This document shows, piece after piece, positions 17,016 to 17,534 of a stretch of DNA of 64,000 nt. The position numbers were made by a program, and so were the translations under genes. The first letter of the stretch is position 1. Every line of letters begins with the position of its first letter. The DNA lies in NCBI GenBank assembly GCA_017961515.1, contig JAGCXC010000019.1, positions 2,803 to 66,802 of the forward strand, read 5' to 3'. This DNA comes from Clostridiales bacterium (GTDB lineage: Bacteria > Bacillota > Clostridia > Acetivibrionales > RGIG10202). The notes under the pieces are model-generated. The model saw nothing but the letters and a program-made list of their open reading frames with translations. It ran no database searches and was not told the origin of the DNA.

Positions 17016-17534
17016 CTATTCATTAATTTCCCGCTCTTCTCCATTTATCTCTTTTTCAGCACCATTTTCTACATCTGTCATATCAATTTTCTTTCTATTA
17101 TTTTCTATATCATTCACATTTGTTGCATTCTCATAACTTGGCGGATTCTCTTCTATATTCATATCCTCATGTCCTACCAGTCTATCATTTTCTCTCTCTT
17201 CATAACCTGGTGGTTCAATATCTCTATTCTCTAATAATATATCGTTTTCTATATCTTCATAACTTGGTAAAATGTCTCTTTCTCTCATTTCTCGTTCTCT
17301 GGTTATTTGTTCGCTTCTTTCTCTTTCTTTTAAAATATCATAGGTAATACCCCCTGCCATTCCCCCTATTAAAATTGATTCTAAAACAGACACTACTATT
17401 AAAAATATTTTTAAGCCCATTTGTCCCGCTATAGGAAAAAATCCCGCTGAAAAAAAAGCCCCAATAAATCCTATCTCAACTAAAATTCCTGCACCAATCC
17501 CAGCTCCTATCCTTGCTTTATTTTTCCAATCCAT
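17016..17534 (-). CDS. Two-TM glycine-zipper membrane protein with an acidic tail carrying three [L/P]PxY motifs
   Basis: 172 aa. The N-terminus GAGIGAGILVEIGFIGAFFSAGFF and LESILIGGMAGG look like Gly-zipper TM helices. The tail has LPSYEDIE (aa 89-92), PPGYEERE (108-111) and PPSYENAT (131-134). Strong RBS AAAGGAGG, with a terminator on each side. Confidence 0.75.
   Translation of the reverse strand: MDWKNKARIGAGIGAGILVEIGFIGAFFSAGFFPIAGQMGLKIFLIVVSVLESILIGGMAGGITYDILKERERSEQITREREMRERDILPSYEDIENDILLENRDIEPPGYEERENDRLVGHEDMNIEENPPSYENATNVNDIENNRKKIDMTDVENGAEKEINGEEREINE
17133..17270 (-). repeat. Three tandem degenerate coding repeats, each carrying D-I-x-[LP]-P-x-Y-E
   Basis: LPSY is encoded at 17259-17270, PPGY at 17202-17213 and PPSY at 17133-17144. 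The flanking codons are similar (cataac[ct]tgg[tc]gg on the plus strand). Confidence 0.8.

Follow-up and report, generated by a model that had tools for sequence, protein, structure and literature searches.

A small clostridial membrane protein with three clustered PPxY/LPxY motifs: a candidate multivalent docking tail

Proline-tyrosine (PY) motifs clustered on a membrane anchor are a eukaryotic (NDFIP1/2) and herpesviral (m42, UL42) switch for ligases of the NEDD4 family, which control the trafficking of receptors, transporters and immune molecules. NDFIP1 and NDFIP2 (Bsd2 in yeast) are small membrane proteins in which three mixed PPxY/LPxY motifs are clustered in a disordered segment; this segment faces the cytosol, and its PY motifs act jointly on WW-HECT ligases by avidity (PMC12720080). 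In the case of NDFIP2, two PPxY motifs and one LPxY motif lie within amino acids (aa) 150-186, and multiple PY motifs are needed to disinhibit WWP2 (PMC12720080). Here, a similar arrangement is described for a bacterial gene located in a stretch of 64,000 nucleotides (nt) from a Clostridiales bacterium (GenBank assembly GCA_017961515.1, contig JAGCXC010000019.1, positions 2,803-66,802), which was analyzed as a whole and is referred to below as the window. The open reading frame (ORF; 17016..17534, - strand, as are all of its features given below) encodes 172 aa from an ATG start, the stop codon at 17016-17018 being included, and its product combines a two-helix membrane anchor with an acidic tail that bears three PY motifs. 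On the grounds of topology and genomic setting, the default explanation is that the protein would serve as a membrane-tethered, multivalent docking tail for a bacterial partner, which is put forward tentatively and at slightly less than an even chance.

The ORF protein and the NDFIPs have the motif variants PPSY and LPSY/LPTY in common (PMC8950476), as well as small size, a membrane anchor and three clustered motifs, which in the ORF protein lie in a tail that may be mostly disordered. However, the NDFIPs have three transmembrane (TM) helices and an N-terminal PY region, whereas the ORF protein has two TM helices and a C-terminal PY region, and no homology to NDFIP or Bsd2 was found in a Pfam-A scan with E values up to 10. 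We know of no WW-HECT ligase in the bacterium that hosts the ORF protein. Small membrane proteins with LPTY and PPSY motifs are also encoded outside eukaryotes, such as m42 of murine cytomegalovirus (MCMV), UL42 of human cytomegalovirus (HCMV) and UL56 of herpes simplex virus (HSV), for which an NDFIP-like action on Itch and Nedd4 has been proposed (PMC5142792). In these herpesviral proteins, the PY motifs are N-terminal and one C-terminal TM helix serves as a tail anchor, whereas the ORF protein has the opposite order and a hairpin anchor; furthermore, they pose no delivery problem because they are made inside the host cell. No herpesviral relative of the ORF protein was found in viral contigs, the phage collection, PHROGs or the protein-collection searches. 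By analogy of architecture, the ORF protein appears similar to NDFIP1/2 and m42/UL42/UL56, but it differs from them in homology, in the number and order of TM helices and in its predicted compartment.

Bacterial effectors that act on NEDD4-family ligases offer a further comparison. Salmonella SteD is a small integral membrane effector that works via the NEDD4-family ligase WWP2, with its N- and C-terminal regions in the cytosol (PMC12720080; PMC7342019). However, PY motifs are absent from SteD, which relies on TMEM127 as a host adaptor and on the WWP2 C2 domain (PMC12720080); it is also injected by a type III system, which has no counterpart in a monoderm Clostridium. TRP32 of Ehrlichia chaffeensis is a secreted acidic effector that binds, and is ubiquitinated by, NEDD4L (PMC5768648), but it has no canonical PPxY motif (TPYY, NPYY and TPDY occur instead), and it is a soluble, type 1 secreted protein of an obligate intracellular Gram-negative bacterium. 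Clustered canonical PY motifs in a bacterial protein were not described in any work returned by a literature search of limited coverage.

The three tandem PPxY/LPxY motifs named in the original prediction are indeed present in the tail of the ORF protein. PY1 (LPSY, aa 89-92, 17259..17270) lies in the context DILPSYEDIENDILL, PY2 (PPGY, aa 108-111, 17202..17213) in IEPPGYEERENDRLV and PY3 (PPSY, aa 131-134, 17133..17144) in EENPPSYENAT; of the five prolines and four tyrosines in the tail, only one tyrosine lies outside these motifs. In composition-preserving shuffles, at least three [LP]PxY matches arose in 0 of 200,000 cases and two in a fraction of 3e-5. The 51 neighbouring proteins contain [LP]PxY at a rate of 0.40 per 1000 aa, which corresponds to 0.069 expected matches in 172 aa and to a Poisson probability of 5e-5 for at least three. 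The three motifs did not arise by chance. As LPxY alone is not rare, the case rests on clustering, context and conservation; four LPxY matches, for example, are found within the folded enzyme encoded by gltX (19357-20838, - strand), and an isolated match is uninformative. The motifs belong to three degenerate repeats that are recognizable at the DNA level, with a 51-nt pair that is 73% identical at a spacing of 57 nt and a 30-nt pair that is 70% identical at a spacing of 69 nt, and units 1 and 2 share the pattern P-x-Y-E-acid-x-E-N-D-x-L-(L/V).

A single relative of the ORF protein, P0002 (40% identity), was found together with its one-residue variant P0123 in a collection of ~15 billion protein sequences in 5.8 billion clusters. 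The gene for P0002 directly follows glnS, as does the ORF in the window, and P0002 is regarded as the positional orthologue because it occupies this same slot. The identity of 40% is distributed unevenly: hardly any alignment is possible over the membrane part and the end of the tail, and the two proteins have LPTYEEVENDIL, PPGYEEREADRLV and IEENPPSYE in common. All three motifs are retained in the orthologue, as LPTY (in LPTYEEV), PPGY (with an identical core) and PPSY (in an identical EENPPSYE, with the flank EEV), so that P-P/L-P and Y are found without exception across the six orthologous motif copies. In a Nei-Gojobori comparison of the two sequences, the synonymous rate (dS) was 0.9-1.0 in each segment, whereas the nonsynonymous rate (dN) was 0.157 for aa 89-135, 0.73 for the membrane part and 0.77 for the end of the tail. 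The resulting dN/dS values of 0.17, 0.74 and 0.84, respectively, at equal dS indicate that the motif core is the sole strongly constrained part of the protein and show selective retention of this core alone.

The conserved core (aa 89-135, 17130..17270; dS 0.93) is composed of three anciently duplicated units, which correspond to the DNA repeats D1 and D2. The original prediction had named, in advance, the loss of the motifs from orthologues as the sign that they were chance products of a recently duplicated acidic repeat; instead, P0002 keeps all three under purifying selection. A recent-duplication artefact was rejected because the units are only 70-73% identical in DNA and all three occur in both species, and the duplication that gave rise to them is older than the split of the two species. 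Conservation is wider than the PY motifs themselves and includes ENDIL, DRLV and IEEN, with END-x-L-[LV] at p+4 to p+9; judged from the aligned pair, such a footprint exceeds the length of a WW site and would fit a dedicated partner. The conserved stretches ENDILL and ENDRLV also fit [DE]xxxL[LIVM], the eukaryotic acidic dileucine sorting signal, but this likeness was given little weight because at least two such matches occur in 3% of shuffles.

The N-terminal part of the protein consists of two hydrophobic helices. TM helix 1 (aa 9-33, 17436..17510) has the small-residue pattern G-x-G-x-G-x-G, with E20, and a hydropathy of 1.5-1.8 (19-residue Kyte-Doolittle means); TM helix 2 (aa 41-64, 17343..17414) has the pattern GGxxGG, with E52-S53 (an ES pair that is also present in P0002), and a hydropathy of up to 2.2. 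They are followed by a charged juxtamembrane helix (aa 65-88, KERERSEQITREREMRER; 17271..17342), whose seven K/R residues mark the cytoplasmic side and which is mostly missing from the orthologue, by the PY core and by a fast-evolving acidic C-terminal end (aa 136-172, 17019..17129; dN/dS 0.84). The tail (aa 89-172) contains 27 D/E against eight K/R, a net charge of -19. The two membrane helices, which form a hairpin, and the very acidic tail are as originally described, and so are the glycine-zipper-like helices, as GxxxG-type, small-xxx-small patterns occur in both of them and a clean GxxxGxxxG is found in TM2 of the orthologue. The likeness is one of packing motif only, since no Pfam glycine-zipper or other membrane family matched either the N-terminal 70 residues or the whole protein.

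Three K/R residues precede TM1, the seven-residue loop is uncharged and seven K/R residues fall within the 24 residues after TM2, a layout that is similar in the orthologue (R2, K6 ... KK after TM2). When the positive-inside rule is applied to this distribution, it predicts an N-in/C-in hairpin with a cytoplasmic tail. A possible signal-peptidase site, SAG↓FF, is located at the end of TM1, but the tail would stay inside even if TM1 were cleaved there. An AlphaFold2 (AF2) model, built on the two-sequence alignment and of low confidence (mean predicted local distance difference test, pLDDT, of 58.9), has two long helices (aa 3-29 and 39-88), the second of which extends through the charged juxtamembrane stretch, with the remainder as coil. 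Within this remainder, short helices at aa 92-102 and 111-119 begin at the Tyr of PY1 and of PY2, and coil is modelled at P-P-x; these features are of low confidence, as the pLDDT is 50-59 over the highly charged PY core and below 50 over the acidic C-terminal end.

The resemblance to ligands of NEDD4-type WW domains was examined residue by residue. The motifs LPSY, LPTY, PPGY and PPSY are all tabulated as NEDD4-family ligand motifs (PMC8950476), and the core consensus [LP]-P-x-Y of group I WW ligands is present in all three motifs of both species. Deep mutational scanning of NEDD4-WW3 and YAP-WW1 ligands has defined 'type 1' PY peptides, with L/P at p-3, Ser/Thr favoured at p-1 in several contexts, an acidic residue at p+2, an aliphatic residue (I/L/V/A/C) at p+3 and a helical turn that starts after the Tyr (PMC11565833). 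PY1 (LPSYEDI; LPTYEEV in the orthologue) has all of the preferred flanking residues in both species. PY3 has all of them in the orthologue (PPSYEEV) and lacks the acidic p+2, which is Asn, in the window (PPSYENA), while PY2 (PPGYEER) does not follow the preferences, having Gly at p-1 and Arg at p+3; Pro at p+1 is absent from all three motifs. From the composition of the tail, the chance that one motif meets three flank preferences is 0.3-0.5%; the units share ancestry and are not independent trials. The AF2 helices that begin at the Tyr of PY1 and PY2 agree, at low confidence, with the helical-turn feature.

The likeness to NEDD4-type WW ligands on which the original prediction was founded is thus real and extends beyond the four-residue core, as judged by the published motif list (PMC8950476), the NDFIP2-like arrangement of three PY motifs (PMC12720080) and the flank fit (PMC11565833). 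On the other hand, a cytoplasmic tail with no export route had been set out beforehand as evidence against this proposal, and such a tail is what the positive-inside rule, together with the lack of an export signal in the window, predicts; a ligand and its WW protein have to share a compartment, and in the predicted topology they would not, short of delivery by vesicles.

In the docking-tail explanation, the two glycine-rich helices would cross the cytoplasmic membrane as a hairpin whose two ends are intracellular, and they may self-associate via their small-xxx-small faces. The 108-residue acidic tail, probably mostly disordered, would be kept in the bacterial cytoplasm and would display three docking units of the form [LP]-P-x-Y-E-(D/E/N), of which units 1 and 2 run on as x-E-(N/A)-D-x-L-(L/V/M). 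The binding surface might then consist of the Pro-Pro-x-Tyr turn and the short acidic helix after it, and a soluble partner with a pocket recognizing proline and tyrosine could be held at the membrane by several weak motif contacts, that is, by avidity. The docking role of the motifs and the bacterial nature of the partner, like the N-in/C-in topology, are inferences. The reality of the gene and its signals, the charge distribution around the helices, the constraint confined to the motif core, the conserved footprint beyond the PY core, the housekeeping setting of the gene and the lack of mobile relatives would support such a tail. A number of points weigh against it. We know of no bacterial domain that reads [LP]PxY, and no WW, GYF or SH3 protein was seen among the 52 proteins of the window. 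The evolutionary argument is based on two sequences, and the occurrence of the gene in two probable animal-gut species, in a slot of variable content, is the pattern of an accessory, niche-specific gene. In addition, the fit of the PY1 and PY3 flanks to NEDD4-WW3 preferences, at 0.3-0.5% per motif, would be unexpected for an unrelated reader (PMC11565833).

The main rival explanation is an NDFIP-like mimic directed at eukaryotes, the PY motifs of which would bind the WW domains of NEDD4/Rsp5-family HECT ligases; it is considered possible but doubtful. The targeted ligases, from the ruminant host or from protists of the gut or rumen, would be relieved of autoinhibition or redirected at the membrane, and the protein would be delivered by vesicle fusion, by uptake or lysis of the bacterium, or by a bacterium living in or on the eukaryotic cell. 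In terms of topology, a tail on the cytoplasmic side of the bacterial membrane would end up in the host cytosol once a bacterial membrane vesicle had fused with a host membrane, which is the NDFIP orientation. All of the core motifs are documented NEDD4-family ligands (PMC8950476), three of them lie within 46 residues beside a membrane anchor, as in NDFIP2 (PMC12720080), and the flanks of PY1 (S/T, D/E, I/V) and PY3 (S, N/E, A/V) fit NEDD4-WW3 type 1 (PMC11565833), with modelled helices from the PY1 and PY2 Tyr and no Pro at p+1. The strong purifying selection on the motif core alone, the probable ruminant gut habitat, the presence of two large tandem proteins with ankyrin repeats, a eukaryote-like domain, in the same window and the precedent of the small herpesvirus PY membrane proteins m42/UL42 (PMC5142792) point in the same direction, and the gut habitat, together with the fit of the flanks and the pattern of selection, lifts this explanation well above any prior. 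However, the tail is predicted to be cytoplasmic, with no secretion signal of its own and no secretion system in the window, and the organism, a monoderm Clostridium, has an ordinary housekeeping repertoire (glycolysis enzymes, F-ATPase, comEC), no sign of an intracellular lifestyle and environmental Clostridia (Caloramator, Acetivibrio; 73-76%) as its nearest named GlnS relatives. Moreover, Arg is found at p+3 of PY2, the conservation exceeds the WW footprint, and the ankyrin genes are 40 kb away and encode no signal peptides. The ORF was also picked for its likeness to a known eukaryotic motif, and this look-elsewhere effect inflates the apparent coincidence. Low-GC Bacillota associated with rumen ciliates have lately been described (10.1101/2025.07.29.667580), although nothing ties the present organism to them.

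If the likeness to PY ligands were incidental, the conserved core would act otherwise than by Pro-Tyr docking, for instance as acidic amphipathic helices that regulate a membrane complex, as a tyrosine-phosphorylation cluster or as a degradation or regulatory tail linked to tig, clpP and clpX. The conservation of ENDIL, DRLV and IEEN besides P and Y, the AF2 helices at aa 92-102 and 111-119, the proximity to tig-clpP-clpX in the window and the frequency of LPxY by itself (four in the gltX product) would be in line with this, but it is considered improbable: the P and Y positions are invariant in 6/6 copies and every proline of the tail is used in a motif, the pairing with tig is not maintained as a unit among relatives, in which, at a GlnS identity of 90-91%, glnS is followed by an rRNA operon or another small ORF, and the ORF and tig have separate transcription signals. 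An exported acidic tail that binds cations or the cell wall at the surface, for example, or that is recognized there by a eukaryotic or phage receptor, is less probable still. Negative charge favours membrane-potential-assisted translocation of short tails, and the possible signal-peptidase site ends TM1; however, the placement of seven K/R straight after TM2, three before TM1 and none in the loop speaks against export, and the tail is 108 residues long, has no downstream anchor or sorting signal and would be inside even after cleavage of TM1. Finally, the protein is an orphan known from two species, with a dN/dS near 0.8 outside the core, as might be expected if the ORF were non-functional or the motifs a by-product of repeated acidic sequence. 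Against this, the ORF has a strong ribosome-binding site, terminators of its own and a syntenic orthologue with a core dN/dS of 0.17 at a dS of ~0.93, its repeats are old (70-73% DNA identity) with three kept in both species, and no known RNA overlaps it, which makes this explanation highly improbable.

The consequences depend on the reader of the motifs. If the docking-tail explanation is correct and the reader is bacterial, the protein would point to an undescribed proline-tyrosine recognition module in Firmicutes. It would also clearly exemplify a multivalent short linear motif maintained by selection within the disordered tail of a bacterial protein, an interaction class on which little has been documented in bacteria. 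If the motifs bind WW domains, they would give a gut Clostridium, as opposed to a pathogen with an injection system, a new way of manipulating the host or protists, and the protein would be a compact natural tool to activate WW-HECT ligases. A mimic would be a new kind of bacterial adaptor, since SteD and TRP32, the bacterial NEDD4 interactors in the literature covered, have no canonical PY motifs. It would be the first bacterial NDFIP-like adaptor, from a Gram-positive commensal, that reaches eukaryotic membranes by vesicle fusion or by an overlooked intimate association, with the ankyrin proteins as further eukaryote-directed factors, an outcome to which we assign a clearly minor share of the probability.

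Searches for further homologues and for a family assignment were largely negative. Pfam, NCBIfam, PHROGs and PADLOC gave no family for the ORF protein, and Pfam gave nothing relevant for P0002 or for the TM part (the N-terminal 70 residues) alone. Matches to Thymosin (E 0.057, sub-threshold, in the Pfam-A scan with E up to 10) and TMEM252 (E 0.58) were rejected as composition noise, and sequence matches to the solved structures of SLD3 and SpoIIIAH (E 0.25-1) were rejected as insignificant and due to acidic composition. An exhaustive phmmer search over 1.84 billion representatives matched the query alone; alignment-based scans of GTDB genomes, JGI metagenomes and IMG/VR returned pattern matches, none of them a relative, and phage and plasmid sequences gave no match by tblastn. 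No phage, plasmid or defence-system relative thus exists among the sources searched (PHROGs, PADLOC, tblastn and viral contigs); in particular, no profile or sequence match to small phage, plasmid or defence-system membrane proteins was obtained, and the neighbouring genes are core housekeeping genes. On present sequence collections, the protein appears to be a lineage-restricted orphan.

The ORF protein and its DNA were also found in three other metagenome samples with 0-1 mismatch in ~4 kb, which indicates the same strain. The three closest GlnS relatives are 88-91% identical, the next GlnS matches reach at most 77% and the named relatives (Caloramator, Acetivibrio/Hungateiclostridium and Oxobacter) 73-76%; the best trigger-factor match among the GTDB genomes retrieved by pattern scan, from a Clostridium sp. 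metagenome-assembled genome (MAG), is 46% identical. The organism belongs to an uncultured Clostridia lineage. In two of the close GlnS relatives, L015 and L016 (GlnS 90-91% identical to that of the window), the ORF gene was not seen in the slot after glnS, and the contig of the third ends before the slot. This slot holds a 16S ribosomal RNA (rRNA) gene in L015 (2711-3252; RF00177, 525 bits) and an unrelated, highly charged 82-aa ORF of no family in L016 (5832-6080; MWLIDFLYGG...RRKEERRQREEELKRREWDRRLEE...). The slot is therefore variable in content even among close GlnS relatives, and the gene appears, as far as is known, to be confined to two species. P0123 is carried on a European Nucleotide Archive (ENA) record named 'XIEF21-1_SAMN15830192_METAG'. 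The exact ORF protein is present in run SRR12529099, which lies numerically between SRR12529079, cited as ruminant metagenome data of Xie et al. 2021, and SRR12529377, the source of a Caprinae gut MAG; from these neighbouring accessions and the record name, the habitat is probably the ruminant gut.

After the orthologue's gene, an ORF on L018 (1250-1408; also L001, 1250-1361) repeats the ribosome-binding-site leader and the first nine codons (MRKSLKIGL) of that gene and then continues as hydrophilic sequence. It was rejected as a tandem paralogue, since it shares the leader and nine codons, then diverges and has no TM helix; the duplication is partial and limited to the 5' end.

At the DNA level, the ORF is wedged between tig (15557-16846) and glnS (17676-19355), both on the - strand like the ORF itself, as had been stated; the same-strand series runs clpX, clpP, tig, ORF, glnS and gltX, followed by the atp operon. 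A ribosome-binding site, AAAGGAGG (17544..17551), was read from the sequence 9 nt before the ATG. A candidate promoter (17585..17611), which was picked by eye, has a perfect -10 element TATAAT (17585-17590), a -35 element TTGTCA (17606-17611) and a 15-nt spacer; a consensus promoter scan that required a spacing of 16-18 nt found none for the ORF on the - strand. The intrinsic terminator of glnS (17616..17649), with a 15-pair stem and then a T run, separates the ORF from glnS. Downstream of the stop codon, a hairpin with a U tract (16960..16999; -21.9 kcal/mol, z -5.9, 0/200 shuffles folding as well) is a likely terminator, and tig has a promoter of its own (TTGCAT / TGaTATAAT) after this hairpin. 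The downstream terminator had been anticipated but was described as weak, which does not suit a hairpin of this stability. The ORF is a real gene with its own transcription signals, and the likely terminator at 16960-16999 means that it is best read as a monocistronic unit, in agreement with the separate transcription unit first proposed. No known RNA family in Rfam overlaps the ORF, even at E values up to 1. On the + strand, a near-consensus promoter-like site (17605-17634; TTGACA / 18 nt / TATATT, 11/12 positions) sits in the glnS terminator region and points antisense into glnS; it is probably a chance match, given that three such sites occur in the region against 5.1 in shuffles.

The window is core chromosome. 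It carries polC, ispG, rseP, dxr, cdsA, uppS, frr, pyrH, tsf, rpsB, clpXP and tig, as well as aminoacyl-tRNA synthetase genes, the atp operon, comEC, pgi, pgm, fbp and mcsB-clpC, and neither secretion machinery nor a mobile element nor an export signal for the ORF protein is visible in its 64 kb. The tandem paralogous ankyrin-repeat proteins (57070-58950 and 58991-60223, both - strand) are 626 and 410 aa long (Ank_2, E 4e-75 and 2e-68, respectively), have no signal peptide or TM helix and are encoded directly upstream of mcsA-like, mcsB and clpC genes; for this eukaryote-like repeat family, their size is unusual for Clostridium. T-box leaders are common ahead of Firmicutes aminoacyl-tRNA synthetase genes, and their absence here is unexpected: across the 64 kb, Rfam gave no match at the gathering score, nor did relaxing E to 1 yield one around glnS/gltX (16800-21400) or upstream of pheST (46800-48000).

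Nearly all genes of the window lie on the - strand, the guanine-cytosine (GC) content is ~0.34 and the GC skew is extreme and uniform, at -0.33 to -0.48 in most 2-kb windows and weaker in four. Positions 28000-34000 have a lower GC content (0.27-0.30) and a weaker skew, and contain comEC (-), nrdR (+) and a DUF1972 glycosyltransferase-like gene (+), the latter two being among the few + strand genes. ORFs of 230 aa (47156-47848, +), 375 aa (47924-49051, -) and 127 aa (27215-27598, -) had no Pfam match at the thresholds applied; the ORF of 127 aa occupies the usual position of atpI, upstream of atpB.

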